A stretch of DNA of 64,000 nt, taken from contig JASGHG010000001.1 of NCBI GenBank assembly GCA_047602425.1, forward strand, positions 4,672,001 to 4,736,000, given 5' to 3'. Positions 37,328-64,000 of the stretch are shown in pieces (within the stretch, counting starts at the first letter, position 1; each line of letters opens with the position of its first letter). This DNA is from Nibricoccus sp. (GTDB lineage Bacteria > Verrucomicrobiota > Verrucomicrobiia > Opitutales > Opitutaceae). Under the pieces are notes generated by a model that had not been told where the DNA came from, did not search any database, and saw only the letters and a program-made list of their open reading frames with translations. The translations under genes and the position numbers were made by a program.

Positions 37328-37494
37328 AGCACATACAATAAAACTGTAGCCGCAAATCGGTGCTATGAATCGAGCTGTCTTCGTAGGGGCGCAGTCTTGC
37401 TGCGCCCTTTCTGTAGCGAAGCCCAACCGGGTGCAGCAAAACTACGCCCCTACAGCCGGAGTTGTGCGGCTATGGCATTTTTTAAAATGCTCTA
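37325..37494. mobile_element. MITE-like element with imperfect terminal inverted repeats
   Basis: Left end TAGAGCA-N15-TAGCCGCA (37325-37354); the right end reverse complement is also TAGAGCA-N15-TAGCCGCA (37465-37494); TA at both termini. Confidence 0.55.
37383..37453. repeat. Inverted GTAG-type REP doublet (REPIN-like)
   Basis: GTAGGGGCGCAGTCTTGCTGCGCCC (37383-37407) and the reverse complement of 37429-37453, GTAGGGGCGTAGTTTTGCTGCACCC, match at 22/25 positions; each is an internal hairpin. Confidence 0.75.
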
Positions 37495-37556
37495 AAGGCC
37501 CGCAGCCGATTTTCGAGACGATTGCTTCAAACATGGCGCCGCTGGAGTAGAAAAAA

Positions 37557-39243: not shown

Positions 39244-39849
39244 ATGGCCAATTACCTCGCCATACACTCTTTCTGCCAATCGCTCTGCGATTATCTTTCG
39301 CAACGGTACGCAACTTACGTGCCGCCGCCCGGTGTCCCCGCTCTGCCGAAGGCCACCTTTACCGTCCTCAGTTCCTCGAAGTTTAGTTCCAACGATAACG
39401 TCCAGGAGGAATCCAGTTCCACGGTTTCACTTTTTTTGCATCGCGTCTCGATCAACAACCATTTGCGCAACTCCCGCGCGGGCGGCGCTACCGGGCCGCT
39501 AGGACTCGATCTGCATTTTCTCCTGACGATCTGGGCCGACAAAGCCGACGAGGAACACATCCTGCTCGCTTGGACGATGCATGAACTGCATCGCCATGCC
39601 TTTCTCGATACGAGTTCGCTCAGTGCCGACGCCCACTGGGCGGTCGACGAACAGGTTAACATCGCTCCGGGCGAACTTCCGCCGGAAGAGATGGCTCGCA
39701 TTTGGGAGGCGTCGCATCGCGGTTACCGTCTCAGTTATCCGTTTGTCGCGCGAGTCATTCGCATCAGCGACGATCCCGCCGTCTCCACCACACCTGTCGT
39801 GGCTACGCGTTTTAGTTACACCGACAATCTCAAGGAGACGGTGCCATGA
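39244..39849 (+). CDS. DUF4255 protein (Afp16/Pvc16-like CIS cap/terminator)
   Basis: VSLFLHRV..N.HLRN...PLGLDLHFLLT.W...EEMARIW...YRLSYPFVARV; first gene of the sheath/tube operon. Confidence 0.82.
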   Translation: MANYLAIHSFCQSLCDYLSQRYATYVPPPGVPALPKATFTVLSSSKFSSNDNVQEESSSTVSLFLHRVSINNHLRNSRAGGATGPLGLDLHFLLTIWADKADEEHILLAWTMHELHRHAFLDTSSLSADAHWAVDEQVNIAPGELPPEEMARIWEASHRGYRLSYPFVARVIRISDDPAVSTTPVVATRFSYTDNLKETVP

Positions 39850-40622
39850 TCAAGGAACGCATCGATACTCGTATACTTGGAGCGGTGCGTTGGGTTGATG
39901 CCGTCACGCTCGCGCCGATTCCCTATCCTCTTGTCGCCACTGGCGCGCAGCTTCGCTTCACGCGCAATCTCAGCGGACTCTGCGTTATCACGCACGCCGA
40001 CGGGCTCGAGAAATACACGCCGACTTTTAAGCTCACCGATCTTTTACCCGCCGATGTTGTCACCACGGGTTCGCTTGGCCGTTCCGGGCAGGTTGAAGAT
40101 CCGTCCGGAAATTATTTGCCGACGAAATTCACGCTCAGTCTTCCGCGCGATCCGAGCCCGGCTCTGGTAGGTCCCAACAACGACCAGCGTCCGCCCAATT
40201 CGCTTTTCAGCCCGTTTGAAATTGGACTCCTGCCCTCGCCCACTTCGCGGGTCGCGCCGGGTTTCGCTCAGGTTCGCGTGCTCATTCTCGACAACGCTTC
40301 GAACCCAATTCGCAACGCCCTCGCCCGCGTCATGGCGACAGCCGACGACGCGCTCCTTGGCTGCGGCCTTTCCGATCAGCGGGGAGAAGCCCTCGTCGCC
40401 ATTCCCGGCCTCAAACATTTCGCGCCCGGCGACACCGAAGACGAAGTCGTCAGCGTCGTGACCGAAGCCAGGCTCGAAATCATTTTGCCGCCGAATACCG
40501 AACCAATTGTCGACTGGACGGCGTTGCGCGACGCGACAGTCGCCGCCGGCAACACCGATCCCGAACTTCTGCACCTAAAACCCGGCGCATCCTACAGCCG
40601 CCACTATCCCTTTACGACCTAA
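39846..40622 (+). CDS. CIS-associated hypothetical protein (possible cap adaptor)
   Basis: Coupled to the DUF4255 gene by an ATGA overlap; contains a beta-rich ARV...GLSDQRGEAL segment; function inferred from position only. Confidence 0.55.
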   Translation: MIKERIDTRILGAVRWVDAVTLAPIPYPLVATGAQLRFTRNLSGLCVITHADGLEKYTPTFKLTDLLPADVVTTGSLGRSGQVEDPSGNYLPTKFTLSLPRDPSPALVGPNNDQRPPNSLFSPFEIGLLPSPTSRVAPGFAQVRVLILDNASNPIRNALARVMATADDALLGCGLSDQRGEALVAIPGLKHFAPGDTEDEVVSVVTEARLEIILPPNTEPIVDWTALRDATVAAGNTDPELLHLKPGASYSRHYPFTT

Positions 40623-40668
40623 GGCCACTGGCCCCGGCCGTCACCTCCAACATTAACCCAACATAATC

Positions 40669-42477
40669 ATGCCAGAATACCTAGCGCCCGGAGTGTTCGT
40701 TGAAGAGACAAGCTTCCGGAGCAAATCCATCGAAGGAGTAAGCACCAGCACCACCGCGTTTGTCGGGCCCACCCGTCGTGGTCCCGTTAACGAGATTCCT
40801 GAACTCCTCACCAGCTTCGCAGACTTCGAGCGCATCTACGGTGGTGTGGATGATCTCGGCAGCGGCTCGACCGCCAAAACCAACTATCTCGCCCACGCGG
40901 TCACGGCCTATTTCAACGAAGGTGGCGCTCGCCTCTATGTGGCCCGCGCCTTCCCGATCACCGGCACGCTCACCGAACCGGATCCGTTTGCCACGAGCCC
41001 CAGCGCGGGCACCCCGGCCAAGGCCTACGCCACCGTGGTGATTCCCGCTTCGGGTTCGGGCAGTTCCGCGGTGCCTGCAGCCAATGTCGGTCACTTCCAA
41101 GCGCGCTTTCCTGGTGCAGCCTACAATGGGAAAATCACCGTCGTCCAACGTGCCGCTTTGTCTTCGGTGGACGCGGCTAAAAAAGCCATCGACGGCAGCT
41201 TGTTCCGTGTGACGGTGACGACTGGTTCTGGTAGCAGCGCCACCACCACTGTCACTTTTTTCACAAAGAAAGGTGCGGTTTTCACCGGCGCGTCCTCCTC
41301 CGATGCATTCCCCAGCGCCGATGCGGCCGGCACGGCGATCGAGCTCCTGACTCTTGACGTGATCACGGAGGACGATCGTGGCGAACCACTTGGTACCTAC
41401 GAAGGCCTCGGTTACCATCCCGATCACAAGCTCTACATCGGCTGGGTGCTCGCCATCGACCAAAACAAGCGCGCCGACCATCTCTCCACTTCGTTTGCGT
41501 TCAAGCCGGCATCGACCAGCATCACGGCGTTTCAGCTGCAAAAAGTTTTCGAGCCCGCCAGTGGCACGACGTCGAAGACCTTTACCTTGGCCAATGGAAC
41601 CGAGCCGACTTACACGAAAAACGATTTCGACGCCGCGCTTTCGATCATCGAGGGCATCGACGATGTCTCCATCGTGGCCGCGCCCGGACATACCACGATC
41701 GATACCGCCATTGCCAATTCGCTTGTCACGCACGCCGAGAAGCGTCGCTCCTATCGGATCGCCGTCCTGGAAACGCCGAAGAGCCTGCTGCCGACCGGCG
41801 CCCGCGACTATAAGGCCAAGATCGATTCGAAGTACGCCGCGCTCTATTATCCATGGGTCGTTGCGCCGAACCCTAACTTTGATCCAAACAACCAGAACAC
41901 GGATGCTGAGGTCGTTCTCCCGCCTTCCGGTTTCGTTTGCGGCATCTATGCCCGTAACGACATCGAGCGCGGCGTGCACAAGGCTCCCGCCAACGAAGTC
42001 GTTCGCACCGCCTTGCGCTTCGAACGCCTCGTCAACACCGGGGAACAGGAAATTCTCAATCCTGCCGGTGTGAATTGCCTGCGCTACTTCGCCGGCCGCG
42101 GCAATCGCGTCTGGGGCGCCCGCACCACGTCGTCCGACCCCGAGTGGAAGTACGTCAATATTCGCCGCTACTTCAATTACCTAGAGCACTCCATCGACGT
42201 CGGCACGCAATGGGCGGTCTTCGAGGGTAACGGCGAACGTCTCTGGTCCAACGTCCGCGATACGGTCACGGGTTTTCTTTTCAACGAATGGGTCAACGGC
42301 GCCCTTCTCGGCGACAAGCCCGAGCAGGCCTTCTTCGTGAAATGCGACCGTTCCACCATGACCCAAAACGACCTCGATAACGGCCGTCTCATCTGCCTCA
42401 TCGGCGTCGCGGCGATCAAGCCCGCTGAATTCGTCATCTTCCGCATCGGCCAAAAGACCGCCGATGCCCGTTCCTAA
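40669..42477 (+). CDS. Contractile tail sheath protein (Afp2/3-like)
   Basis: MPEYLAPGVFVEE, AALYYPWV, RGVHKAPANE, GVNCLR, VWGART, WKYVNIRR and PAEFVIFRI motifs. Confidence 0.96.
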   Translation: MPEYLAPGVFVEETSFRSKSIEGVSTSTTAFVGPTRRGPVNEIPELLTSFADFERIYGGVDDLGSGSTAKTNYLAHAVTAYFNEGGARLYVARAFPITGTLTEPDPFATSPSAGTPAKAYATVVIPASGSGSSAVPAANVGHFQARFPGAAYNGKITVVQRAALSSVDAAKKAIDGSLFRVTVTTGSGSSATTTVTFFTKKGAVFTGASSSDAFPSADAAGTAIELLTLDVITEDDRGEPLGTYEGLGYHPDHKLYIGWVLAIDQNKRADHLSTSFAFKPASTSITAFQLQKVFEPASGTTSKTFTLANGTEPTYTKNDFDAALSIIEGIDDVSIVAAPGHTTIDTAIANSLVTHAEKRRSYRIAVLETPKSLLPTGARDYKAKIDSKYAALYYPWVVAPNPNFDPNNQNTDAEVVLPPSGFVCGIYARNDIERGVHKAPANEVVRTALRFERLVNTGEQEILNPAGVNCLRYFAGRGNRVWGARTTSSDPEWKYVNIRRYFNYLEHSIDVGTQWAVFEGNGERLWSNVRDTVTGFLFNEWVNGALLGDKPEQAFFVKCDRSTMTQNDLDNGRLICLIGVAAIKPAEFVIFRIGQKTADARS

Positions 42478-42504
42478 ACTAATCGCTTTAACCAAAGGTA
42501 AACC

Positions 42505-42954
42505 ATGCCTCGCAGCACTCCCTACGGCGCCTTCAACTTCTCCGTAAACCTCAATTCCCCCGGCGTCGATCCGGCCTCCGAGCTCGGCGGCTTTTCCGAC
42601 GTCTCCGGCCTCGTCACTGAATCGGTCGTTGCCGAATATCGCAACGGCAACGCCAAGGAAAACCACGTCAAAAAAATCCCGCTGATGCACAAGGTGGGCG
42701 ACGTCACGCTCAAACGCGGCGTCGTCGACTCGACCGAATTCTTTGCGTGGATCAAGGACACGCGTGAAAAGGGCTACTCCTCCAAACGCGATGTCGTCAT
42801 CACGCTTCGCGACGAGACCGGCGCCGATGTCCGCAAATGGAAACTCCAAAGCGTACTCCCGCTCAAATACACCGGCCCAACTCTCGCCGGTAAAGGTGGC
42901 GATGTCGCGATGGAGGAACTCGTCCTCTCCTCCGAAGGCATGGTGATCGAGTAA
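42505..42954 (+). CDS. Tail tube protein (T4 gp19/Afp1-like)
   Basis: PYGAFNF.V, GGFSDVSGL, EYRNGN, DVTLKRGV, P.KYTGP.L and VAMEEL motifs. Confidence 0.93.
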   Translation: MPRSTPYGAFNFSVNLNSPGVDPASELGGFSDVSGLVTESVVAEYRNGNAKENHVKKIPLMHKVGDVTLKRGVVDSTEFFAWIKDTREKGYSSKRDVVITLRDETGADVRKWKLQSVLPLKYTGPTLAGKGGDVAMEELVLSSEGMVIE

Positions 42955-42968
42955 GTCCGCACTCTGTC

Positions 42969-44540
42969 ATGTCAGGCCTCCTCTTCAAGGACGCGCAGCC
43001 TGCTGCGACGTCGTCGCCAAATCGCGCCGACGTCGTCTGCTTCATCGGCTTCGTCGGGCGCCGTGCCACGCCGCTATCCTCGCGCCTCAAGTCCTGGCTT
43101 CAGGACCAAGGCTGGCGGCCGCGCGGCACGCTCGTGCCCGACTTCGATCCGTTGTTCAACACGCCCGTTCCGCTGGAGAGTTTTGAGGCCTTTGATCGCC
43201 TGTTCGAATGGGAAACACGCCCGCCCCAACCGCATGCGTTTTCCTACACAACGTGGTTAGGCGCCGCCGTGCGCTCATTCTTCCGTCAAGGTGGCGCACG
43301 CTGTCACGTTGTGCGTATCGACAATCCGGTTACGTACAAAACCCTCGCCATCTCGGCTTCAGCCGCGGAGAAAGCGGCTTTTGTGGCCAGCCAGCAGGTT
43401 CGTCTCAACCAGTTGCTTCCCGGATTTGTCGGCGGCACTGAGACTCCGACTCCCGCGGATCCTGCAACGTGGAAAGGCCTCGGCGTTCTCCTCGGTCTCG
43501 ACGAAGCCGCCTTCGTCTGCCTGCCCGATTTGCCCGAACTCGTTGCGGACACAGCGCTCGAACCCGCGGGCCTCGCGCCGGTCGAGCCGGGTCCGGAGGT
43601 TTTTGTCGACTACACGCCGGAAGTTGTCCTGCCGAAGGACGAGGTTCGTCAGATTTCCTCGTCACCGGCCTGCACCGAAGCTGGTTATCTCACGTGGCGC
43701 CGTGCGGTCCGTTACGCTGCAAGCTTCATCCGCGACCGACGCCGCGATGTCGAATTGGTTTTGACGCTCCCGCTGCCATCGCCCGATCTCACGCGCAATT
43801 ACACGAGCAATCTCGATCTCGCCAGTGGCGTGCTTGGGCTCGGAAAAACGCTCGACGAAAACGATGGCATCGCCAGCGCATTTCTTCAGCTGGCTTACCC
43901 TTGGGTGTTGACGCCCGGCGCCGAGGCGCTACCTGGCGGACTCGAACCACCCGACGGCGTCTTTTCCGGCGTGCTCGCCCGCGCCATTCCTGAACTCGGG
44001 ATCGCCCACAGCGTAGGCCGTCAGTTTCTCCATGGAGTCCATGGCTTCGAACCCAAACTCACCGGTTCCGATTTGGAATTGGACACGCCGAAAACTGGAG
44101 CCCCCGCTTTGATCTATCGCGTCTCGCTGCTTGGCCAGACGCCCGACGGCAATCGAGTCCTTTCCGACGTCACCACGAGCAAAAGCGAAACCCATCGTCC
44201 CGCTCCAGTCGGACGGCTCACTGCCGCGATCCTGCGCACCTCGCGCCACCTTGGCGAAAGCGTCACTTTTGAGCCCGCTGGCACGGCGCTTTGGGAAAAA
44301 ATTCGCGCTCAACTGGAGCGTTTGCTTGGCGACTTCTATGCCGCCGGAGCGCTGCTCGGCACGTCGACCGAGGAGGCGTATTCAGTTCGTTGCGACGAAT
44401 CCACTACGAACCAAAACGACATCGACAACGGCCGTGTGATCGCGGAGGTCCGTTTCGCGCCGGCTCATCCCGTTGGGCTCATCACGGTCATTCTTTCTCT
44501 CCGCGAAGGCACTGTCACCGCCGTCGGCTCACCCGCCTGA
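42969..44540 (+). CDS. Second, divergent sheath protein (Afp4-like sheath initiator)
   Basis: RADVVCFIG, AVRSFFRQGG..CHVVR, AYPWV, FEP, AYSVRCDESTT.QNDIDNGRVIAEV.FAP motifs. Confidence 0.85.
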   Translation: MSGLLFKDAQPAATSSPNRADVVCFIGFVGRRATPLSSRLKSWLQDQGWRPRGTLVPDFDPLFNTPVPLESFEAFDRLFEWETRPPQPHAFSYTTWLGAAVRSFFRQGGARCHVVRIDNPVTYKTLAISASAAEKAAFVASQQVRLNQLLPGFVGGTETPTPADPATWKGLGVLLGLDEAAFVCLPDLPELVADTALEPAGLAPVEPGPEVFVDYTPEVVLPKDEVRQISSSPACTEAGYLTWRRAVRYAASFIRDRRRDVELVLTLPLPSPDLTRNYTSNLDLASGVLGLGKTLDENDGIASAFLQLAYPWVLTPGAEALPGGLEPPDGVFSGVLARAIPELGIAHSVGRQFLHGVHGFEPKLTGSDLELDTPKTGAPALIYRVSLLGQTPDGNRVLSDVTTSKSETHRPAPVGRLTAAILRTSRHLGESVTFEPAGTALWEKIRAQLERLLGDFYAAGALLGTSTEEAYSVRCDESTTNQNDIDNGRVIAEVRFAPAHPVGLITVILSLREGTVTAVGSPA

Positions 44541-44545
44541 TCATC

Positions 44546-45052
44546 ATGCCTGACTTTGAAACACCGCCTGTTGGAAATTTCCGCTACGAACTGGTTTTCT
44601 CCGAGAACCGTTTGAAAAGCGACGGCGCCCTGCCCAACAGCGAAAAAGGCGTGGCTGGTGGCGCGTTCGCCGAATGCAGCGGCCTTGAGGCAACCATGGA
44701 ACCCAAGGTGATCAAGGAAGGCGGTCTTAATTACGGAACGCATCAGCGCGTGGGCACCGTTTCTTTCGCCACGGTTATTCTCCGTCGCGGAATGACCACC
44801 AACACCGACCTCTGGAAATGGTTTCTCAAGGTCACGCTTTCCGGCGCCTACACCCACCGCATGGACGTGAAAATCCGTCACCTCGATTTTGATGGGACAA
44901 CGGTTATCCGCACGTGGCAACTCGACCGGGCTTTACCCGTGAAATTCAAATCCTCCGACCTGAACGCCAAGAGCGGAGAAATCGCCATCGAAGAGCTTCA
45001 TCTCGTTCACGAGGGCCTCGGCACTCCAATAAGCCATGATCGCTGTCCCTAA
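44546..45052 (+). CDS. Second tail tube protein (Afp5-like)
   Basis: True start probably MPDFETPP (44546); AFAECSGLE, EGGLN, VILRRGM, PVKFK..DLNA..GEIAIEEL.LVHEGL motifs. Confidence 0.88.
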   Translation: MPDFETPPVGNFRYELVFSENRLKSDGALPNSEKGVAGGAFAECSGLEATMEPKVIKEGGLNYGTHQRVGTVSFATVILRRGMTTNTDLWKWFLKVTLSGAYTHRMDVKIRHLDFDGTTVIRTWQLDRALPVKFKSSDLNAKSGEIAIEELHLVHEGLGTPISHDRCP

Positions 45053-46007
45053 CACCGTAAAAGCAAAGTTCTCCTACAACAGTTCTGCGGGAGCGCAGAG
45101 CTTCGACGTTAATTTTAATCCCTCCTCGCTCGACTATACCATTACCGCGAACAGTCAGGGCGACGGCGGCCATGCGCAGCAAACCACCGGTTCGGCCAGC
45201 GCGAAGCTCAACATGGAGCTCATCTTCGACACCACCGACACCGGTGACGATGTCCGCTCCAAGACCAACAAGGTCGAGCTCATGCTCCAGACCAGTCCCG
45301 GCACCGGCGATAACCCTCCGCCGCAAGTTCTAAGCGAAGTCACCTTCGAATGGGGCGCGTTTCATTTCATCGGCATCGTCGACTCGTTCAAGCAGACGAT
45401 GGATTTCTTTTCGCCCAACGGCATTCCGCTGCGCGCCGTTGTCACGCTTTCGATGGCGCAAAACGCCTATAAATTCGACCAGCAGGGCTCCGGCCAAACC
45501 GCCAACGTTGATCAAACTCTCGACGTTGCCGGTGGAAGCCCTTCCGACCTCGCCGCCGCTGCTGGCGATCCAACCGGCGCCCGCGGCATCGCCAGCGCCA
45601 ATGGACTCGAAAGCCTTCGTGCCGGAGTTTCGGGCGGCATCTCCGTTGGCGGTGGCGTCTCGATCGGTGCCGCCGCCTCATTCTCCGCTGGGGCCAGCGC
45701 CAACGCCGGCCTTGGTGCTGGCCTTGGGTTCGGTGCCTCGGCTGGAGCTGGCGTTGGCCTCTCAACCGGTGCAGGCATTTCCGCCGGTGTTTCCGCGAGC
45801 GCCGGCGCCTTCAGTGAACTCCACACCGAAGCCACCGCCGTCGGGGGAAAATATCTCGACGCCTCGCGTTTGCTTGCGACGGCTTCCGCCCCCGGCGTCG
45901 CTCCCGGTGCGCTTTTCGATGTCACCGGCAAAGCTATTGCCCAAAGTTCCAGCACCTTTAAAGCCGAAGTCGGCGCCACCAGCGGGCTTCGCTTCGACGA
46001 CAATTAA
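45036..46007 (+). CDS. CIS tube initiator (Afp7-like) with degenerate LysM and Gly/Ala/Ser-rich tail
   Basis: VNFNPSSL, L.MELIFDTT, VTFEWG.F.F.G and FFSPNGIPLRA.V.L motifs; LysM-like DLAAAAGDP..ARGIASANGL. Confidence 0.82.
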   Translation: MIAVPNTVKAKFSYNSSAGAQSFDVNFNPSSLDYTITANSQGDGGHAQQTTGSASAKLNMELIFDTTDTGDDVRSKTNKVELMLQTSPGTGDNPPPQVLSEVTFEWGAFHFIGIVDSFKQTMDFFSPNGIPLRAVVTLSMAQNAYKFDQQGSGQTANVDQTLDVAGGSPSDLAAAAGDPTGARGIASANGLESLRAGVSGGISVGGGVSIGAAASFSAGASANAGLGAGLGFGASAGAGVGLSTGAGISAGVSASAGAFSELHTEATAVGGKYLDASRLLATASAPGVAPGALFDVTGKAIAQSSSTFKAEVGATSGLRFDDN

Positions 46008-46009
46008 CC

Positions 46010-46177
46010 ATGGCCATCATTTTCGACGAAGTCTCAGCGGAAATCGCTCCGCCTGTTCCCACCACCGGCGCCGCCGACCGGCAGGGTGATGCGAACGTGC
46101 CTCCCACCGATCCACAAGCCGTCTTGCGCGAACTCCAACGTATCGCCGAACGGGCCGCCCGTTTGAACGCTGATTAA
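46010..46177 (+). CDS. Small 55-aa CIS protein (possible Afp6/plug analogue)
   Basis: Below the ORF-track cut-off: MAIIFDEVSAEIAPPVPTTGAADRQGDANVPPTDPQAVLRELQRIAERAARLNAD*; fills the gap with 2- and 6-nt spacers. Confidence 0.7.
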   Translation: MAIIFDEVSAEIAPPVPTTGAADRQGDANVPPTDPQAVLRELQRIAERAARLNAD

Positions 46178-46183
46178 GCCGCC

Positions 46184-47266
46184 ATGCCTCCTCCTGCCGA
46201 TACCGAACGCACCTACGTCGCCAATCCGACCGTCCGACTCGACGGTCAGGAAAACGAACGCATGGCGGCGCTCATCACCTCCATGGTGATGAACGAACAG
46301 GAGGGCGGGCTCTCTTCGCTCGAGCTTCGACTCACCAACTCCGCGTCGCTCCGCGGGGGCGGTGCTGAATACGCCTTCGACGTCGGTGGCGAACTGGCTT
46401 TTGGCGCCGAGATCGTCATTGGCGCCGGCGACACTGCGGCGCCTGTCGAAATTTTCCGCGGCATCGTCACAGGGCTGGAAGGCATTTTCAACAAGGAGAC
46501 TCCGCCGGAAATCATCGTTCTTGCCGAAGACGCCCTGCAAAAAGCCCGCTGCAAACGCCGAACCAAAGTCTACGAAGACCAGTCGCTCGCCGATATCGCC
46601 CGCGCCATCGCAGGCGACCATGGTCTCACGCCGCAGATCGACGGTCTCGATCAAAACTTCGGAACCCAGGTGCAGCTCAACGAAACCGACCTTGGTTTCC
46701 TTCGCCGCCTCATTGCACGAGTTGATGCCGATCTCCAGATCGTCGGCAACAATCTGCAAATTTCACCGCGTGCCAATGTCCGCCGCGGAGAACTCGAACT
46801 CGCCCTGGGCGGAGAACTCAGGGCCGCCCGTGTCCTCGCCGACCTTGCCCATCAAATCACGAAATCCACCGTGAAAGGTTGGGATGTATCCGGTGGTTCG
46901 GTCATGGATGGCGAGGGCGCGGAAAATGCCCTCGGCCCCGGCGAAGGCAAAAAAGGCGGCGAAACTCTGTCCGATGCTCTCGGGGACCGCACGCATCACA
47001 GCTGCCACCACTTCACTTTCAATCAGGACGAAGTCGACGCCGTCGCCACCACGGTCCGCAACCGCCGCGCCCGCCGCTTCCTTCGGGTGCAGGGCGAGAC
47101 CACCGGCTCCCCCGCACTTCGGGTCGGTACGCATGTGAAGCTCACCGGCCTCAGTACTTGGTTTTCGAATACATTCTACGTCACGTCGGCGCGCCATCTC
47201 TTCGACCTGCGCTCCGGTTATCGCACCGAGTTTGAAGGTCAGTGCGCTTACCTCGGAGACACCTGA
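46184..47266 (+). CDS. Baseplate hub / phage late control D (VgrG gp27-like, Afp8 N-part)
   Basis: IF.G.VTGLE, AEDALQ, Q.NETDLGFLRRL..R, GWD and G.PALRVGT.V.L.GL...F...FYV..ARH.FD...GYRTEF motifs. Confidence 0.88.
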   Translation: MPPPADTERTYVANPTVRLDGQENERMAALITSMVMNEQEGGLSSLELRLTNSASLRGGGAEYAFDVGGELAFGAEIVIGAGDTAAPVEIFRGIVTGLEGIFNKETPPEIIVLAEDALQKARCKRRTKVYEDQSLADIARAIAGDHGLTPQIDGLDQNFGTQVQLNETDLGFLRRLIARVDADLQIVGNNLQISPRANVRRGELELALGGELRAARVLADLAHQITKSTVKGWDVSGGSVMDGEGAENALGPGEGKKGGETLSDALGDRTHHSCHHFTFNQDEVDAVATTVRNRRARRFLRVQGETTGSPALRVGTHVKLTGLSTWFSNTFYVTSARHLFDLRSGYRTEFEGQCAYLGDT

Positions 47267-47269
47267 CCC

Positions 47270-47947
47270 ATGCCCGCCATCGATTTACATTCCGATCCGG
47301 TTCATGCCTGCCATCTCGCCAAGGTGGTCAGCGTGCAAGATCCCGACAGCCTGGCCCGCGTCAAAGTGAAGCTCCTCACGGTCGATGGCGACGGCGAGGC
47401 CGAGATTTGGGCGCGCGTCGCCGTTCCTTTTGCGGGTGCCGACCGCGGTGCGCTTTTCATCCCCGATGTCGACGACGAGGTGCTCGTCACTTTTCTCGCC
47501 GGCGATTCACGCTTCCCCGTCGTGATCGGCGGCCTGTGGAATGGCGCACAAAACCCGCCCGAGCAATTCAGCGGCGATCGCGTGGATCGGTGGACCATCA
47601 CCGGCAAAGCCGGTACGCGCATAGCCATCGTCGAGGAAAGCGCCTCGTCGGCAAAAATCGAATTTTCCACGCCGAACGGCATCAAGGGCACGCTGACCGA
47701 CGAAAGCGGCGGCAGTATTAAGTTTGAGGATACAGGCGGCAACAGCATCACCATCGACTCTCAGGGCATCGCGCTTCAGGCCGCCTCGAAGGTCAAGGTC
47801 ACCGCCGGACAGGTCGAAGTTTCCGCCGGCATGGTGAAAGTGGACGCCGGCATGTCGAAATTTTCAGGCGTCGTGAAGTGCGATGTCCTTCAAGCCACAA
47901 CGGTTATCGCTTCAACCTACACCCCGGGAGCCGGCAACATATGGTAA
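47270..47947 (+). CDS. Spike / baseplate assembly protein V (gp5 OB-fold, Afp8 C-part)
   Basis: DPDSLARVKV, WARVAVPFAG..RG.LFIPDVDDEVLV.F..GD.R.PVVIGGLWNG; beta-helix-like C-terminus. Confidence 0.9.
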   Translation: MPAIDLHSDPVHACHLAKVVSVQDPDSLARVKVKLLTVDGDGEAEIWARVAVPFAGADRGALFIPDVDDEVLVTFLAGDSRFPVVIGGLWNGAQNPPEQFSGDRVDRWTITGKAGTRIAIVEESASSAKIEFSTPNGIKGTLTDESGGSIKFEDTGGNSITIDSQGIALQAASKVKVTAGQVEVSAGMVKVDAGMSKFSGVVKCDVLQATTVIASTYTPGAGNIW

Positions 47948-49533
47948 GCGTCGCCACAAAAGAAACTGACTGCGGCCACGAGGTCGAACTCCTCGGCGCC
48001 TGGCCCGTGCGTGGCGACGGCGCGCCTTCGATCATCGAGCGCAAAGACGAGGATTTTATCCCCGCTCTGCTTGAAGAACTCGCCGGCGAAAATCCGGCTT
48101 CGACGGTTCCAACCCATCGCCCCTCGGCGGACGGAAGCGTACTCCGTCTCTTCCAGCCCGTTCACCGTGTTTTCAACCTCGCGCTGCTTGAGGCCCATTG
48201 CACGACCTTCGGTACGCCGCGTCTCGACCCCCGCAAAATCGACTCCTCCGGGCTCGTCGTTCGCCGCATCCGCACCCAATCCGACGGCACTAAACGCTAC
48301 GATGCTTGGTGTGCCACGAAGAGCCGTGTGACCGGCTGGGTCGAGCTTCCGCCCTTCGACAGCGACGATCACCGCCGCGATCCGGACCCCGCCCGTCGTC
48401 CACAGCCTCGATACACCGCCGATCCCGCTTTTGACCGACGCCAGTTTGGCAGCAGCGACCGCACCGCCGAGGAAACTACTTCACTTTTTATCGCGCCACC
48501 CGAAACAGTTGCCACCACCACGCGCACTTTGCTGTATGGTGTGATTCCCGTCACCAGTTCCTCCCGTGCCGGCGCGATGCCGAAAGGTGACGCACCTTCT
48601 GCCGCCGACTGGGCCGCCCACCTTTCGCTCCTTCTTCGCGCCAACGCGAGTCCTGTCTTGCTCTGGCCCACCGACACTGCCGGACAGCGCGCCGAAAATC
48701 TCGTCCGCGACGACGTCAAAAACAACCCCGTCCTCTACCCTGACGCTAGCATCAACCCCGGCGCCTCGCGTTTCATCCTCCTCGTTCGCCAGCTGGCGCA
48801 AGAATTCAGTCTGCTCCGTCCGCTCAATCCAACCACGGGCGACAAGCTGATCGAAAAACTCAACGCCCTCACGATCACGCTGGTCGACGGCACCTCGCGC
48901 CCGGCCGGCTCTTACCTCAACGATGCCGCCAAACTCTACCTCGACCAACCTGAACCATCGCTCACGCTACCACGTCCGGCGACGTGGCCTGCTGTTACCG
49001 ACGCGCAGGCCAACGCGCTGTTCAATGTCCTTCAGGAAATCGCCGGCGAGACGGAGCTTTCGGTTTTCGCCGGGGAAAACGCCGGCGGGCGTTATGACGA
49101 CGTCACCGCTCATTATGTCGTTCGCGCCTTCATCCGCGTGAAGCGTCCCTGCGATTGTCCGCCGGAAATCGTGTGGAGCCCCTATAGCGAGGAATTCACC
49201 ATCGCTCCGTGGTTCGAATCCGGGCCGACGGGACCGGTGCCGGTGATTCTTCCGGATCTTACGCCTGATTTTTTCAAAAAAGCCCGTCCCAACGTCGCCT
49301 TCTCCGTGCCGGCGAAGCTGGCCAATTTTCTCAATCAGGATCCCAAGAAAATTCTCAAGGGCGAAGGCACCAACGGTTCGTCGCTCACCCTCGATTGGAT
49401 CTGCGGTTTCAACATCCCGATCATCACCATCTGCGCGTTCATCGTGCTCAACATCATCCTGGGCCTGCTGAACATCATCTTTTTTTGGCTCCCCTTCGTG
49501 AAGATCTGCATCCCCTTCCCCCGTAAAAAATGA
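47941..49533 (+). CDS. CIS-associated hypothetical protein with C-terminal membrane anchor
   Basis: Start MVSVATK overlaps the spike stop; ends WICGFNIPIITICAFIVLNIILGLLNIIFFWLPFVKICIPFPRKK. Confidence 0.7.
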   Translation: MVSVATKETDCGHEVELLGAWPVRGDGAPSIIERKDEDFIPALLEELAGENPASTVPTHRPSADGSVLRLFQPVHRVFNLALLEAHCTTFGTPRLDPRKIDSSGLVVRRIRTQSDGTKRYDAWCATKSRVTGWVELPPFDSDDHRRDPDPARRPQPRYTADPAFDRRQFGSSDRTAEETTSLFIAPPETVATTTRTLLYGVIPVTSSSRAGAMPKGDAPSAADWAAHLSLLLRANASPVLLWPTDTAGQRAENLVRDDVKNNPVLYPDASINPGASRFILLVRQLAQEFSLLRPLNPTTGDKLIEKLNALTITLVDGTSRPAGSYLNDAAKLYLDQPEPSLTLPRPATWPAVTDAQANALFNVLQEIAGETELSVFAGENAGGRYDDVTAHYVVRAFIRVKRPCDCPPEIVWSPYSEEFTIAPWFESGPTGPVPVILPDLTPDFFKKARPNVAFSVPAKLANFLNQDPKKILKGEGTNGSSLTLDWICGFNIPIITICAFIVLNIILGLLNIIFFWLPFVKICIPFPRKK

Positions 49534-49916
49534 GCGTTCCTCCACCCATCGGTTGGCCTTTGCTTCCGCTCCCTGACGAGGGCGGGCAACTCAATTGGCC
49601 CACGCTCGAACAAAGCGTCGCGCAACAAATCCGCGTTATTCTTCAGACGCGTCCTGGCGAACAGCTCATGCGTCCGTTGTGGGGCGCCGGTCTGGAGAAT
49701 TTTCTCCACGAGCCCAACACGCTCACCACGCATCGCCGTATTCGCGACGTCGTTGGTTCATCCCTCGCGCACTGGGAGCAGCGAATCATCGTGGACGATA
49801 TCTCCGTCGCCGCGCCGCCCGACCAACCCGGTCAGGTCCGCGTGGAAATCGCTTACCGTCTCCGCCGCACCGGCGCCTCCAGCCGTCTCGGCCTAACCCT
49901 CGAACTCGGAGCCTGA
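49530..49916 (+). CDS. GPW/gp25 family baseplate protein (Afp9-like)
   Basis: IRVILQTRPGEQLMRP.WGAGL..FL.EPN and L..WEQRI.V motifs. Confidence 0.92.
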   Translation: MSVPPPIGWPLLPLPDEGGQLNWPTLEQSVAQQIRVILQTRPGEQLMRPLWGAGLENFLHEPNTLTTHRRIRDVVGSSLAHWEQRIIVDDISVAAPPDQPGQVRVEIAYRLRRTGASSRLGLTLELGA

Positions 49917-49920
49917 CCCG

Positions 49921-52140: not shown

Positions 52141-52194
52141 GAATCACTGGCACCCAAACCATTCCTCATCTTCCCATAAGTCTCCTTTTCTTTC

Positions 52195-54558: not shown

Positions 54559-55376
54559 GCACCAACACCACTAATCCCAGCCAACGGGTTGCCTACAACA
54601 ATGGCATCCTTCTCGACGCCTCGGATTTCCAACAGGAACAGCTCTATCATCGCAGCCGCCTCGCCGCCGCCTTGACGGTGCTGCATGGTTCGGGAACTAT
54701 CGCCGGCCTCAAGGCCGAGCTCATTCCCGCCAAGGATGCTACGGCGACCGAGCCAGCTGTGCCCGAGCAACTGATCGTCAATCCCGGCATCGCGCTGGAC
54801 CGCATTGGTCGCCTCGTGGAAATCAAAACCAAGCAGAGCCTGCGCCTCGACCGGTGGTATAATTTCCAGAAAGCCAAACCAGGCGCCATACTCAAACCTT
54901 TCCGGGATCTCGGCCCCAATCGCTATTTCATCGCAGACATTCTTCTTCGCTACCGCGCGTTTTCGCAGGGCCTGCGTCCAGGATTCCCAGAGCCCGCCGC
55001 CGATGCGACTGACGCCATCGTGCCTTCCCGCGCGAATGACAGCTTCGAGCTTCTCCTCGTCCCTCGCGACTGCGACCCCGAGATCGAACTCCCCGCTATA
55101 CCTAAAAGCCGGTTCGACGCCAAACCCACCACCAAAGCCGAGCTCTTGGACGCCATCTACAAGGCCTACGATCAATCGAATCCCGCCATCGATCAGGACT
55201 CCGGCCAGGGCGCATCCGACGTCACCGCCATTTTTATCACCCGGGTTCGCATCCGCCTCGTGGATGCTCCTTCCACTTCTCTTAACCGCCACGCTTCCGC
55301 CGAAGTCGTCATCGACGATCTCGACCGACCGCTCGTCACCACGACCGAACTACTCCGCCAACTCCTTCCCGTCTAA
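54555..55376 (+). CDS. CIS hypothetical protein, paralogue 1 of triad
   Basis: RVAYNNGILLDASDFQQEQLY...G.GTIAGL...VNPGIALDRIGRLVEI module. Confidence 0.7.
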   Translation: MSTNTTNPSQRVAYNNGILLDASDFQQEQLYHRSRLAAALTVLHGSGTIAGLKAELIPAKDATATEPAVPEQLIVNPGIALDRIGRLVEIKTKQSLRLDRWYNFQKAKPGAILKPFRDLGPNRYFIADILLRYRAFSQGLRPGFPEPAADATDAIVPSRANDSFELLLVPRDCDPEIELPAIPKSRFDAKPTTKAELLDAIYKAYDQSNPAIDQDSGQGASDVTAIFITRVRIRLVDAPSTSLNRHASAEVVIDDLDRPLVTTTELLRQLLPV

Positions 55377-55396
55377 ACCTTCTTCCCCTTTTCATC

Positions 55397-57415
55397 ATGT
55401 GTGCCGAACCAATCGAACTCACCGCGGAGAACGAATCCTCCAGCATCATCGTCGACACCCGCCGCACCCGTCCGCGTTTCTTCGACGGGAAATTCCTCAC
55501 CGCTGCCGATCTCACACAGGAACAGACTTATCTCCTCACCCGTCAAGCCGACCTCGGCCGCACGCTGGGCTTTGGCGTAGTCGAAGGTCTGCGCGTCAGT
55601 CGGGCCACGATTTCCGCCTCGGGTCTGCCCAATCCTGCCGCTTCCGTTAAAGTCACTCGTGGCAACGGCCTCACTCCGTCCGGGGAAATCGTTTTCGTTC
55701 CCAACGAAATCACCATCGACCTCGACAACGTTGCGCAAATGCAGCGACTCAGCGCCGCCTTCGGACTGACCCGCGAACCGCAGCAGCCTTTTCAAAGTCT
55801 GAGCGGCCTCTTCGTTCTCGGCCTCCGCGCCGTCGAGTTCACGGCCAATCCCACTCCGGCCTATCCGCCAAGCGTCGATGGCAACAGCTCCCTCCGAGAC
55901 GGTGAAACAATTGAAGCCACCGCATTCACCATCGTTCCTTACGACTCGGATGCCTCGCGCAAAGACCCGCGATCCGCCCGGACCCGCGCCGCCCGGGAGA
56001 TCTTTCTAGAACAAAAAAATCCCTCGCTCCCCGCCGGGGTGCTTCCGCTCGCGATGCTTTTCCTGCGCAACGGCACGCTCGATTGGACCGACGAGTGGCT
56101 GGTCCGCCGCGAAGCTGGCGATGATGATAGGTTCGGGTTCGGCTTTGCCCCGCGTGCTCTTTCCGAAGCGCATTTCTTTCACTACCAGGAAATGTTGAAG
56201 GAAACACCCGGCGCCAATCCCGGGCAGCTTTCCGCCCAAAGCTTTCTTGAAATCATTCCCGCTTCCGGCCCGCTTCCCGCGAATGCGATCAATCGCACGG
56301 ATTTCACCCAGGCGTGGTTCCCGCCCGAAGCCCGCGTCGAACTGGCCTTTGTCCCCGCCGACGAACTCGCCGCGCTCATGGAGGACAGCATCGATCTGCC
56401 ACCCATCAATCTCGCCCTCAAACCCGAGGACCAGGATGCGCTCGCCATCCTCGTCCTCGCGCCGGTTACGCGCGCCGATTTTGGCAACACGCTCGATAAA
56501 CTCAAAACGCTACCGCCGCCGGTGCTGCGGAATTTTGCGCCGCCTCTTCTTGCCCAACAAAAACCCATCGAGGCGCTCCTCAAACTCAACGCCGTTTTCG
56601 AACTAAAGAAAAATCAGGTCAGCCCCGCTCCTGCTCCCGCCGATTTTGTCAGCCCGGCCTGGCGCGAAGCCCTCTCAAAAGTCGATCAGCTCTGGTACAT
56701 CCGCCGCCGCAATCTCCCGTCCGGTACCGGTCTCGCCGGCACGCCTCTCGCGGTCGCCAGTGAGGTCATCACCGGCACCGACCTTCCGCCGCCGGTCTCG
56801 ACCGGTGGCGGTTCAGGCGGCACGAATGATGACGACAACACCGAGACGCCGCCCGTCATCAGTGGAAAACCCGAGGAGGTGCTCTACAAGTTTCTCGCAG
56901 AGGAACAGCTCTGGGGTCGTTTTGCCTTTTTCCGAACCATCTCCGATCTGCCCGCCCACAACGATCTCGTCAATCTTCTCACCGATCCAATACTCACCGA
57001 CAACAAGCTCGGCCCGCTTCTCCAGCAGGCGCTTTTCACCACCATGGAAAACGCCATCCCGCTGATTTCCGAAAGTCCCGCGGAAAACTTTGACCAGATT
57101 CAAAAGGATCCAGGGATCAAAGTCCTCACCCAGGACATCATCGCCAAGGCCAGAAAAACCATCCTCTCCAAAACCGTTCTTCGCGGCCTCGAGGCGACCG
57201 TGGCCGAACACCCACTCTTCCTCACCGAGCTGCGCTACCGCCAGGTTCTCGGCCGCACTGATCGCATCGCCACGCTCGCGTTGATCACGGCGAAATATTC
57301 CGATCTCCCCGCCTACAAATCGCTCATGGAGGTGATTGAAAAATACGCCCCGACCGGCCGCGCCCAAGTCATCCGCGACAACATCGACAAATTTATCAAA
57401 AAGGTGAACACATGA
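55397..57415 (+). CDS. CIS hypothetical protein, paralogue 2 of triad
   Basis: RPRFFDGKFLTAADLTQEQTY...GFGVVEGL...VTRGNGLTPSGEIVFV module. Confidence 0.7.
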   Translation: MCAEPIELTAENESSSIIVDTRRTRPRFFDGKFLTAADLTQEQTYLLTRQADLGRTLGFGVVEGLRVSRATISASGLPNPAASVKVTRGNGLTPSGEIVFVPNEITIDLDNVAQMQRLSAAFGLTREPQQPFQSLSGLFVLGLRAVEFTANPTPAYPPSVDGNSSLRDGETIEATAFTIVPYDSDASRKDPRSARTRAAREIFLEQKNPSLPAGVLPLAMLFLRNGTLDWTDEWLVRREAGDDDRFGFGFAPRALSEAHFFHYQEMLKETPGANPGQLSAQSFLEIIPASGPLPANAINRTDFTQAWFPPEARVELAFVPADELAALMEDSIDLPPINLALKPEDQDALAILVLAPVTRADFGNTLDKLKTLPPPVLRNFAPPLLAQQKPIEALLKLNAVFELKKNQVSPAPAPADFVSPAWREALSKVDQLWYIRRRNLPSGTGLAGTPLAVASEVITGTDLPPPVSTGGGSGGTNDDDNTETPPVISGKPEEVLYKFLAEEQLWGRFAFFRTISDLPAHNDLVNLLTDPILTDNKLGPLLQQALFTTMENAIPLISESPAENFDQIQKDPGIKVLTQDIIAKARKTILSKTVLRGLEATVAEHPLFLTELRYRQVLGRTDRIATLALITAKYSDLPAYKSLMEVIEKYAPTGRAQVIRDNIDKFIKKVNT

Positions 57416-61530: not shown

Positions 61531-61533
61531 TTC

Positions 61534-62904
61534 ATGCCGGTTCTCGAACGCCAAGTCCGCCGCCTGCGCCTCAAGGCCGCACACGAGGATCACGTGCGGC
61601 ACGGACAGGTCTTGCTCGAAGACGCCTTGCGGACTGCCACCCTTGGCGACGAAGCGCGCCTGATTATTGTCCGCCGTTTGGACCTTGGCGTTGTTTCGTC
61701 TCGCGCCAACTCCACTCACTGGAGCCGCCGCATCGAGGAATCTTTTCGAAAGACGAATCTGGTGCCGGTCAGCGTCCACGCCCCGTCCGCTCCCTATGCC
61801 GCAGCCGTCTATTTCGTCGACCACAACGAGCCTTGGCTTCAACTCGCCCGTCGCACGCTGGCGGAGCAGCCGTGCACCGAATGGTACTGGCGCTCGGCCC
61901 TGCCTGGCTGGAAACCTTCGGCCCCCGCCGCCGAAACGCTTCGCCTCTGTGTGCGGACGCTCGCGCTTCGCGGCGGACTTCCTTTGACCCTTCGCCTTTT
62001 TGCGACGCTTCCCTCCACCGCGATCGACACTCTGCTTCAAACCCTGGAGCCCTCCGATCTCGCGCCTCTCCGCGCCGCCCTTGATTGCCCATTCAACGCG
62101 CCCGACGTCAAAACACTGCTCGCGGCCGAAAAATCCTCCGCCTTGTCGCCAAACGACCTCGAACGCCGCTTGATTCAGCTGTGGGGTCCGACGGATATTC
62201 GCACCAACTTTCTCGCTGCTATTCGGCTCTCTTTGGATAACTCGTCTGGTTCGTCTCTGTTTGGAAACTCAGTTGTCTCCTCTAGCCGAATTCAACAACT
62301 CGTCCGGCACTGGCGGAGTGAAAATTACTCGTCCGTCGCGGATCGTTCAATACCCGCCACGAAATCCGCCGACACTACCTCCATTCGCTCGCCACAACGG
62401 AGCGTCATTTCACCTCTCGAAGAAACTCTCGCATCGGAGACCGAACCACCCATTTCGCTCGAACGTCTCTTCACCCGCGCGGGCGGTCTTTTTTTTCTGA
62501 TTTCTCTACTCGATCACGCAGGTCTACCAGACTTCCTTACGACGCTCCCTGAACCGGCACGCGCCGAATTTCCCTGGCAAATCCTCCGTCTCGCCCTTCG
62601 GCATGCCCGCGTGGACGCAGCCGATCCCCTTACTGTTGTCTTCGACGAACTACCATCGACCGACCAGCCGCTCGGTCGCTGGCTCCTCGCCGTCAATCGT
62701 CGCGCGCTTCGCCTGACGGGCATGAATCTCCGCGCCATCGTCCGCCGGCCCGCGCGGATCACACTGACACCGACACACGTCGATGTTTTCTTTCGTCCCG
62801 CCGAGGCCGAAGTCCGTTTGCGCCGTGCCGGTCTCGACCTCGATCCAGGTTGGATTCCCTGGCTCGGTCGCGCCGTGGCCTATCATTTCAACCGCGAGGA
62901 TTGA
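61534..62904 (+). CDS. CIS tape-measure-like protein (Afp14-like)
   Basis: N-terminal LIIVRRLDLG and C-terminal T.AGGLFFL...RPARI.LT.THVDVFF...LRRAGLDLDPGWIPWLGR.V.YHF; lies directly before the ATPase as in Afp loci. Confidence 0.65.
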   Translation: MPVLERQVRRLRLKAAHEDHVRHGQVLLEDALRTATLGDEARLIIVRRLDLGVVSSRANSTHWSRRIEESFRKTNLVPVSVHAPSAPYAAAVYFVDHNEPWLQLARRTLAEQPCTEWYWRSALPGWKPSAPAAETLRLCVRTLALRGGLPLTLRLFATLPSTAIDTLLQTLEPSDLAPLRAALDCPFNAPDVKTLLAAEKSSALSPNDLERRLIQLWGPTDIRTNFLAAIRLSLDNSSGSSLFGNSVVSSSRIQQLVRHWRSENYSSVADRSIPATKSADTTSIRSPQRSVISPLEETLASETEPPISLERLFTRAGGLFFLISLLDHAGLPDFLTTLPEPARAEFPWQILRLALRHARVDAADPLTVVFDELPSTDQPLGRWLLAVNRRALRLTGMNLRAIVRRPARITLTPTHVDVFFRPAEAEVRLRRAGLDLDPGWIPWLGRAVAYHFNRED

Positions 62905-62907
62905 GCC

Positions 62908-64000
62908 ATGGCGAAAACTACTCTCATGCAGCTCGCTCTCGCCGCCGTCGCCCAGCGCGTCGGCGTCCAGACGGGAACCGATTCGACTGAGGCAAATTAC
63001 CTCGCCGAACAAGCGCGCGGTCTTCCTGACACGTCGGAGGGCCTGGCCGATCTCGCACGTCAGATCCTTCGCAAGCCTTCCGGGGACGATACCTCGCTTG
63101 TCCGCCTTGCTTCCACTTGGAAACTTTCGCTCGCGGAAACACTGTCGCTTGCCTTGGTCGCCGCGATTGAACGCGACCTTCTCGCCGGTCGAGCCATCGC
63201 CTACGCCCAAACTCCCGTCGGCGGTTCGAGACCCACGCTTGGTCTCCTCGCAGAATCCTTTGGCCGCATCGACAACTCGAAGCTCTTCAATCCCGTCCAA
63301 CTCGCCAGCAGTCCCGCCTTCCTCAGCGGTGCGCTCACCTTGCATAACGACGGCGCTCCGCTGCCCGAACGTCCCGTTTCGCTTTCGCTTCCTCTCTGCC
63401 TCGCTCTTTCTGGGGAAGAAACCAACTGGCCCGGCGGCGTGATCGACCATCCCGATGCGCAACTCCCGCTCCCGGAATCCGTCGTCGCCCAATGTCGCCA
63501 GCAGGCTTCTGCTCTCTCCCGGGAGTCGTCCTGCGTGCTCGTCCTGCGCTCTTCCGCTCTTGAGGAAACTCGCGCCGCCGCCACTTCCATTGCGCGTACG
63601 CTGAACAAACGACCCTTTATCGCCGAAACGGTCGCCACCTCGGGCCTTGCCGCGTGGCTGATCCTGCGCGATCTCATCCCCGTTTTCGTCCTCGAACCTG
63701 GTCCCGGCGAAACCAAACAGGTTCCTGCCATTCCTCTTTACGATGGCCCCGTGCTCGTCGCCGCCGGTATCGAGGGCACACTCGAGGCTCCCGGTCGTCA
63801 GCTCACGCATTGGAGCCTTCCGCTCCCGACGCTGGCCGAACGCGAGACGCTTTGGCGCCAGGCACTCCCGCATGGCACCGCCGCAGCCGAACTCTCGCGC
63901 AGCCATCGCCTCAGCACCGCGCGCATTTCCCAACTGGGTAAACTCGCCCTCCATCGCGCCCACCTGGATGGCCGAACCACTCCGGATGCCACAACCGTTC
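62908..64000 (+). CDS. Afp15-like AAA+ ATPase, N-terminal part (runs off the right edge)
   Basis: Absent from the ORF track because it has no stop. MAKTTLMQL...LSLAETLSLALVAAIERD...AYAQTPVGGSRPTLGLL resembles the N-terminal region of CIS ATPases; the Walker motifs of the main AAA domain are not in the window. Confidence 0.65.
   Translation, partial: MAKTTLMQLALAAVAQRVGVQTGTDSTEANYLAEQARGLPDTSEGLADLARQILRKPSGDDTSLVRLASTWKLSLAETLSLALVAAIERDLLAGRAIAYAQTPVGGSRPTLGLLAESFGRIDNSKLFNPVQLASSPAFLSGALTLHNDGAPLPERPVSLSLPLCLALSGEETNWPGGVIDHPDAQLPLPESVVAQCRQQASALSRESSCVLVLRSSALEETRAAATSIARTLNKRPFIAETVATSGLAAWLILRDLIPVFVLEPGPGETKQVPAIPLYDGPVLVAAGIEGTLEAPGRQLTHWSLPLPTLAERETLWRQALPHGTAAAELSRSHRLSTARISQLGKLALHRAHLDGRTTPDATTV

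Follow-up and report, generated by a model that had tools for sequence, protein, structure and literature searches.

The 64,000-nucleotide stretch of the Nibricoccus sp. genome analysed here (the window, positions 4,672,001-4,736,000 of a single-contig, 5.16-Mb genome with a completeness of 99.97%) carries most of an operon that almost certainly encodes an intact contractile injection system (CIS), very probably of subtype IIb of the extracellular contractile injection systems (eCIS) catalogued by Chen et al. (2019; PMC6899500). IIb is the one eCIS subtype devoid of PAAR, and its describers, who defined it from sequence alone, left the replacement open. The new point is a candidate for this replacement, named and modelled here: a 530-residue protein encoded in the PAAR slot, along with its predicted contact residues and a marker motif in the spike. 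From structure prediction, this protein probably binds one face and the YTPGAGNIW tip of the spike trimer. Our proposal that three copies, each with an immunoglobulin (Ig)-like core, grip the spike faces, and that a Cys-clasped bundle of hydrophobic helices replaces PAAR in IIb and inserts into a membrane, is more tentative; such a tip would be of a kind absent from the solved structures searched.

An intact system, probably of subtype IIb

All of the eCIS core components are encoded, namely tube, sheath, Afp7, spike, gp25, baseplate J, AAA ATPase and the Afp16 cap (Table 1), and the genome's two matches to DUF4157 (eCIS_core) both fall inside the operon. The 21 genes, all on the plus strand from position 39244 and separated by 20 intergenic gaps of -17 to +54 nt, extend 8.7 kb beyond the window, where the reading was continued (genome position being window position plus 4,672,000), and end with the AAA ATPase gene and two DUF4157 genes, followed by an IS481-type transposase. 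They are of full length by comparison with a genome of the same genus (G003), in which the first 16 are present at 62-95% identity until the contig ends, and with a genome of the same family (G018), in which the whole gene run is present, with one effector instead of two. The first-pass annotation had described about 19 coupled plus-strand genes; the order and the parts are borne out, family searches finding cap, sheath, tubes, initiator, hub, spike, gp25 and baseplate J and I as placed, while the total comes to 21. The ATPase that it named is present, but cut by the window end, and the effectors that it expected beyond position 64000 are the two DUF4157 genes.

As to the subtype, IIb is described (PMC6899500) as possessing afp6, a split afp8, a single afp11, divergent afp12 and afp13, and two or three genes that are specific to the subtype and contain no known domain, as lacking afp10 (PAAR), and as generally lacking afp14. 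The assignment follows from a gene content that fits this description point by point: a small gene in the afp6 slot, no PAAR, afp8 split into gp27 and gp5 halves, one Baseplate_J gene, divergent afp12 and afp13, and extra genes without known domains; a remote Afp14-like gene, by contrast, may be present here. Homologues also occur in Sorangium, a genus with a IIb locus in Table S3 of the same paper. In a sheath tree of 42 rows over the last 215 residues, whose bootstrap has not settled and whose deep forks are open, sheath 1 forms a clade with 11 other PAAR-less loci of the same gene order (support 100/97), adjoining a plasmid locus of Rhodococcus opacus and separate from both Afp2/3/4 and the four phage sheaths included, while sheath 2 belongs to a separate long-branch clade (100/100); the tree comprised no named IIb reference, which counts against the assignment. 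The best matches among solved sheaths are haloarchaeal and Streptomyces sheaths of lineage II (E 1e-105 to 1e-97, versus 1e-45 for Afp3/Pvc2). Lineage I traits are lacking, the spike being split and not fused, a PAAR-type afp10 being absent, and the sheath lying away from Afp2/3/4. Judged by these comparisons, the locus is not of the Afp/PVC kind, the label it had been given by the first-pass annotation. The novelty seen by that annotation in the host lineage was likewise overstated: subtype IIb has been catalogued since 2019, eCIS loci in Verrucomicrobia are on record, with four operons, one of them in Opitutales, in the supplement rows of Geller et al. (2021; PMC8213781), who also assayed one Ca. 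Udaeobacter effector in yeast, and the host lineage adds little. The verrucomicrobial host itself, surmised from the letters, gains indirect support, as the closest titled locus is a Verrucomicrobiota metagenome-assembled genome and the named close homologues are from Opitutaceae/Horticoccus.

A defective prophage tail or an R-type tailocin would account for the phage-derived sheath, tube and baseplate, and phage sheaths do match at up to 36% identity. However, the operon contains the eCIS-specific Pvc16, CIS_tube, DUF4157 and AAA ATPase, the order of its genes is kept across phyla, sheath 1 lies outside the four phage sheaths of the tree, and the whole genome has no match to Terminase_6N or Phage_capsid, the two head families searched. 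Family scans of the 21 genes recognised neither head genes nor a membrane complex of a type VI secretion system (T6SS), and downstream, where head or terminase genes might have followed, there are the ATPase, the effectors and the transposase. The prophage or tailocin explanation is refuted on gene content and is extremely improbable, and the earlier view of an intact operon that is no prophage holds.

The protein in the PAAR slot

With three PAAR queries, no PAAR came up in the operon or in any of 76 related loci, although the T6SS query does recover both reference eCIS PAARs, and the only PAAR of the genome is that of a distant T6SS. The 530-residue protein possesses an Ig-like core, a variable middle and, at its C-terminus, a nearly invariant hydrophobic helix flanked by two Cys; in its model (mean per-residue confidence, pLDDT, of 85) a beta-sandwich core carries a large insertion, and the helix spans residues 492-519, between C488 and C523. 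Foldseek gave no match at E 0.001 in PDB or BFVD, which does not make the fold new, and the best VIA Z score, 7.5, is to Ig/FN3-type sandwiches; there is no profile match among PDB sequences, and Atlas returns only unnamed clusters. The helix is the sole hydrophobic peak of at least 2.0 among the operon's proteins, and the peak recurs in every homologue of two sets, 120 of 120 and 140 of 140, with the two flanking Cys at nearly constant spacing in 113 of the 140. Its region is the most conserved of the protein (73% identity in distant homologues, against 18-25% in the middle), a degree of sequence conservation that would exceed the need of a plain anchor.

The position of the gene is equally constant. 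The 76 metagenomic loci were fetched with the profile of the 530-residue protein (the best 80 of 417 confirmed stretches being kept), and 53 of them are at least 5 kb long; the gene directly follows the spike gene in 50 of these, the other three having no upstream gene on the contig, and directly precedes gp25 in 51, the rest ending at the gene. The C-terminus of the spike reads YTPGxGNxW in 37 of 37 cases (Y217, T218, P219, G220, G222, N223 and W225 being invariant), and two PAAR-bearing reference spikes are without the motif. A scan with the motif only gave 17 loci (a raw count, with no de-replication), and in every one the spike is followed by a member of the 530-residue family (E 2e-152 to 3e-5). 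A figure of 67 motif sites out of 67 followed by the gene was set aside, as these loci had mostly been chosen by that same gene. The 17 motif-selected loci are 'viral' contigs of IMG/VR (L112-L128) and could be bacterial loci misfiled as viral. One locus, L042, is a mirror-image contig (an assembly artefact), and in another, L040, the PAAR-slot gene is split over two open reading frames. The gene has probably been drawn already as a 'subtype-specific' gene in the IIb map of Figure S4 of Chen et al. (2019). A literature search that left most subscription journals outside its reach found no experimental study of a IIb system or of this protein.

In the model of the complex, three copies of spike residues 100-225 were combined with one copy of residues 10-530 of the partner. 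The score is 0.73, compared to 0.00 for the best of three controls; among the calibration pairs, 116 of 157 solved ones attained the mark, as did 2 of 215 mismatched ones, figures that apply only roughly to the 3+1 set-up. The runs share at least 76% of contacts, with partner pLDDT of at least 73. The spike contacts step through the three chains (185-188, 192-197, 199-203, 203-208, 208-215, 215-222), and in the geometry of a triangular beta-prism such stepping corresponds to one face, thus three copies per spike would be expected by symmetry. The predicted interface includes the first turns of the hydrophobic helix (490-503), and F39, P73, F183 and W424 of the partner belong to the conserved contact residues. 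The 39 residues of the interface have a mean conservation of 0.82 versus 0.53 elsewhere (76 rows below 50% identity), a value matched by none of 520 circular shifts, while the region 208-380, for which no contact is named, varies fastest and would face outward. Our searches turned up no like complex, so it is less likely that the score stems from the memory of a close structure.

Putative effectors

The products of both terminal genes (1,250-1,370 residues) combine DUF4157 (HETAH) with tape-measure-like helices (PHROG tape measure matches at E 2e-16 and 6e-8 for effectors 1 and 2, respectively) and a nuclease-like C-terminus, which in effector 2 carries the motif RGH...N. By analogy with Tme of Streptomyces davawensis, a CIS effector with shown nuclease activity (PMC11126660), these two proteins may be cargo that cuts nucleic acid after delivery. 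No immunity gene follows the effectors here, nor in G018, and most effectors tested by Geller et al. (2021; PMC8213781) are likewise without one. Removal of an immunity gene by the insertion sequence (IS) was considered and rejected, as G018 has neither the IS nor a partner gene, and the IS lies inside a repeat.

Proposed mechanism and its rivals

To the mechanism as a whole, release included, we assign a probability of about 0.5. By homology, the cap, two sheaths, two tubes, initiator, split spike, baseplate and ATPase make a headless contractile tail. The 530-residue protein is predicted to bind the face of the spike trimer and its YTPGAGNIW end; with three-fold symmetry, three copies would sit on each spike, and their Cys-bracketed hydrophobic helices would meet at the tip, in place of PAAR. 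The two DUF4157 proteins would be loaded as cargo, their C-terminal domains cutting nucleic acid after delivery, and the three crown/fibre proteins, devoid of membrane helices, would bind the target. In the least certain step, lysis of the cell would free the particle for a single shot into another cell, the hydrophobic tip seating in its membrane.

A number of observations weigh against this mechanism. The predicted binding rests on one prediction made with our own alignments and on a 3+1 set-up unlike the calibration, and as conserved residues can draw a model interface, the conservation test is not fully independent of it. Family scans recognised no lysis gene among the 21 genes, and, by their published accounts, the two closest solved relatives act at the producer's membrane or in its cytoplasm. 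The PF13930 nuclease matches of the effectors (22.8 and 22.2 bits) are below the cut-off of 27, effector 1 has MHL...NN, with MHL replacing RGH, and neither effector matched a solved nuclease by sequence. The C-terminal helix is long enough to span a membrane, and basic residues come after it (net charge +2 to +4, in 118 of the 120 homologues), so that, under the positive-inside rule, it resembles the helix of a tail-anchored membrane protein.

This resemblance leads to an alternative in which the 530-residue protein sits in the producer's inner membrane by a tail anchor and docks the spike there, so that the system fires from inside, either outward, like the haloarchaeal T6SS-like CIS, or into the producer's own membrane, like the CisA-dependent system of Streptomyces. 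The single long hydrophobic segment with its basic tail and the lack of a recognised lysis gene speak for such docking, as do the nearest solved sheaths, whose systems act on membranes and have been described with a putative membrane anchor or adaptor, and a homologue in the monoderm Rhodococcus opacus; the predicted spike binding fits docking equally well. Yet the protein is predicted on the ejected part and not on the baseplate, and an anchor on a moving spike could hardly brace the baseplate; the model packs the first helix turns on the spike tip; immunity genes are lacking, unlike with the haloarchaeal DUF4157 toxins; and the genome has a separate canonical T6SS. We hold firing from the producer's membrane to be the main rival, though rather unlikely. 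Some T6SS effectors load on the side of VgrG, and the 530-residue protein could similarly be spike-borne cargo, a membrane-damaging effector or a helper in nuclease translocation, with the C-terminus of the spike itself as the tip. It is predicted to bind the beta-prism on a side face, the sequence of its middle region changes rapidly, and the tied top matches of its Ig core include one domain from a cargo complex bound to VgrG (9jg8/9jdh, Z 7.5/7.4, root-mean-square deviation 3.0, about 120 aligned residues); however, a Z under 8 is ordinary for an Ig fold, the gene keeps its slot in all loci seen, as swappable toxins would not, and the protein belongs to no enzyme family and has no immunity partner, making a cargo role improbable.

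Comparison with known systems

The CIS of Halogeometricum borinquense (clade IIa, membrane-bound; PMC11566945, 9EZM) provides the best sheath match (E 5e-105) and resembles the present system in DUF4157 cargo and in a putative membrane protein linked to the cluster, but differs in having two cis11 genes and toxin-immunity pairs; a related Haloferax locus has a PAAR and one sheath. The Streptomyces coelicolor CIS (IId; PMC12237407), with sheath and baseplate J matches at E 5e-99 and 2e-38, similarly has one membrane-type protein in its cluster, CisA. This protein begins with an unstructured region, followed by a central membrane helix and an outer domain; its gene comes after those of the baseplate, and the particle does not contain it. 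In contrast, the 530-residue protein is folded N-terminally, is encoded after the spike and is predicted on the spike. Tme of Streptomyces davawensis (PMC11126660) shares the combination of DUF4157, a tape-measure-like region and an EndA-like nuclease; that system, however, has a PAAR-like tip and a single effector of 2,247 residues inside the cluster, whereas here two effectors end the operon. The Anabaena tCIS (PMC8894136, 7B5H) is similar in the crown/fibre shoulder fold, the two-gene cap and a plug-sized gene, and differs in its fused spike, PAAR-like Cis10 and anchoring via the membrane helix of the fibre Cis13, the three fibres here having no such helix. With Serratia Afp and Photorhabdus PVC (Ia) the superfamily core is shared, but these have a fused VgrG, three sheaths, Afp10 and a clear Afp14, and their sheaths form a separate clade.

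Other components of the operon

Table 1. Features of the operon and its control region. Positions are those of the window, continued past its end at 64000.
Feature	Position	Strand	Evidence
LuxR-type regulator gene, divergent	37557..38690	-	GerE E 2e-11; 78% identical, same place in G003
AT-rich control region	38691..39243	.	GC 0.42 vs 0.57 for genome
Cap / tail terminator (Afp16/Pvc16, DUF4255)	39244..39849	+	PF14065 (Pvc16_N) E 5e-29
258-residue protein, candidate cap adaptor (Cis16B-like role, from position)	39846..40622	+	no Pfam
Sheath 1	40669..42477	+	PF04984 + PF17482, E 1e-21; best PDB matches 9ezm, 8bky, 8bl4
Tube 1	42505..42954	+	PF06841 E 1e-30
Sheath 2, strongly divergent	42969..44540	+	PHROG sheath E 1e-13; no Pfam match
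Tube 2 (Afp5-like)	44546..45052	+	PF06841 E 2e-30
Tube initiator (Afp7-like), Gly/Ala-rich tail	45036..46007	+	PF19266 (CIS_tube) E 3e-17; no LysM match
55-residue protein, candidate Afp6/Cis6 spike plug (by size, slot)	46010..46177	+	open reading frame; no Pfam
Spike hub (gp27 half of split Afp8)	46184..47266	+	PF05954 (Phage_GPD); matches N-halves of solved CIS spikes
Spike (gp5 half), C-terminal motif YTPGAGNIW	47270..47947	+	PF04717 (Phage_base_V) E 2e-24
530-residue PAAR-slot protein, predicted spike-bound tip	47941..49533	+	no Pfam family
gp25 wedge (Afp9)	49530..49916	+	PF04965 E 5e-21
Baseplate J (Afp11), one copy	49921..52140	+	PF04865; TIGR02243 above cut-off; 9gtp E 2e-38
Baseplate I / divergent Afp12	52195..54558	+	PF09684 (Tail_P2_I); CIS12_fam E 5e-35, below cut-off
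Short fibre/crown-type baseplate appendage	54555..55376	+	CIS13_fam E 2e-11, below cut-off; resembles next gene
Fibre/crown-type appendage, TssK/receptor-binding 'shoulder' N-terminus	55397..57415	+	AlphaFold2 model, Foldseek
Long fibre/crown-type appendage, 1372 residues	57412..61530	+	CIS13_fam E 4e-8; 25% identity to previous gene over 395 residues
456-residue protein, possible remote Afp14 tape measure	61534..62904	+	2/89 homologues match PF19268
AAA+ ATPase (Afp15/Pvc15-like, 655 residues), 5' part	62908..64000, ends 64875 (L001:908-2875)	+	PF00004 E 2e-23
Putative effector 1	64875-68990 (L001:2875-6990)	+	PF13699 E 6e-20; PF13930 E 1e-4
Putative effector 2	68994-72749 (L001:6994-10749)	+	PF13699 E 5e-20; PF13930 E 2e-4

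Sheath 2 is 29% identical to sheath 1 over 217 residues. Sheath 1 itself is 62% identical to its G003 counterpart, as against 83-95% for the neighbouring genes, and is 39 residues longer, a divergence that, at the sequence level, points to a fast-changing surface domain. The 258-residue protein, for which neither a Pfam nor a PDB sequence match was found and whose Atlas model resembles carboxypeptidase-regulatory-like clusters (TM score 0.60-0.61), may be a cap adaptor, and the 55-residue protein (84% identity in G003, 36% in G018, no family match) may be a spike plug, both being weak candidates.

The three genes after the baseplate genes share an N-terminal domain, and the hydrophobicity of the operon proteins reveals no membrane helix in their products. 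For the middle one, the model (pLDDT 75) matches 7b5h chains AA-AC (E 2e-4 to 6e-4) and TssK (E 1e-3) in Foldseek, the fold being similar to the trimeric crown-sized chains of the Anabaena baseplate, to TssK and to phage receptor-binding shoulders. A 2026 catalogue (PMC12923769) defines eBAP classes in which Tail_P2_I baseplates bear several fibres, and the arrangement of three fibres would agree with these. In 21 related loci, extra short open reading frames lie between baseplate I and the first fibre gene, beta-sandwich-like by eye and without a PAAR match. The 1372-residue product, previously annotated as the tape measure, was rejected in this role, having no PHROG match and a fibre/crown-type N-terminus. 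A tape measure may instead be encoded by the gene before the ATPase: 2 of 89 homologues of its 456-residue product match CIS_TMP (best E 4e-5), while the protein itself has no match to Afp14, leaving a remote tape measure as a weak possibility.

Genomic setting

The divergent LuxR-type gene is a candidate controller of the operon; blastp finds no match at the corresponding place in G018, and a promoter scan of the control region remained at chance level. Just upstream of this gene (29412-37327) are genes for a hybrid histidine kinase of 1,898 residues, with 9-10 HAMP repeats, GAF and three receiver domains, and for a second hybrid kinase. An intergenic repeat of about 173 bp is found at 37325-37496 and, beyond the window, at 72747-74233, and 22 copies of at least 150 nt are among 50 BLAST matches in the genome. 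The IS481-type element that follows the operon, represented by four copies of at least 99.5% identity, sits inside one copy of this repeat.

A separate canonical T6SS (G000:C1, about 936,000-963,000) encodes TssC, TssM/IcmF, VgrG, a PAAR-peptidase C39 fusion and Imm49; the sole IcmF match in the genome is 3.7 Mb away from the operon.

Distribution

The system is rare in the host phylum. The PAAR-slot gene is present in 5 of 300 further family genomes (one match being weak and pieced) and in none of 400 genomes drawn from the phylum, while Pvc16_N is found in 2 of the 400 and in 5 of 40 relatives. The 530-residue family nevertheless comprises 1,518 clusters at 50% identity, 608 of which match at E 1e-30 or better, with named members from Nitrospira, Sorangium, Thauera, Hydrogenophaga, Pyrinomonadaceae and Opitutaceae, and we take the family to span Verrucomicrobiota, Pseudomonadota, Nitrospirota, Acidobacteriota, Myxococcota and Actinomycetota. 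The patchy presence, combined with the fixed gene order, suggests horizontal spread. A tblastn search of plasmids with the protein gave no match, yet a profile search did bring up a distant homologue, on a plasmid of Rhodococcus (E 3e-36), thus plain BLAST misses members of the family.

The Rhodococcus opacus plasmid (NZ_CP095404.2, L104; L102:14451-33887) carries a locus of the same subtype in an actinobacterium, with DUF4157 genes inside the cluster and a PAAR-slot protein extended by about 110, mostly acidic, residues past the hydrophobic segment. A Cereibacter sphaeroides plasmid (CP031753.1, L109:22665-26255) has a similar front half, a short spike without the tip motif, and no 530-residue protein, an unrelated gene of 312 residues occupying the slot before gp25; two sheaths and a split spike alone, therefore, do not imply a hydrophobic tip. 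Other eCIS layouts, with a single sheath and the ATPase first, occur in relatives (G036:C16:7500-31400, G006:C23:4900-22300), indicating that the order holds at least three kinds of eCIS.

Conclusions

The co-occurrence of an eCIS and a T6SS in one genome is described as rare by Chen et al. (2019; PMC6899500), and here a complete genome carries both the operon and a canonical T6SS. The candidate PAAR replacement bears on how lineage II systems make contact with membranes, a matter in which each of the studied members, haloarchaeal and Streptomyces, differs, and the tip part of the 530-residue protein may be what decides between release and membrane docking.

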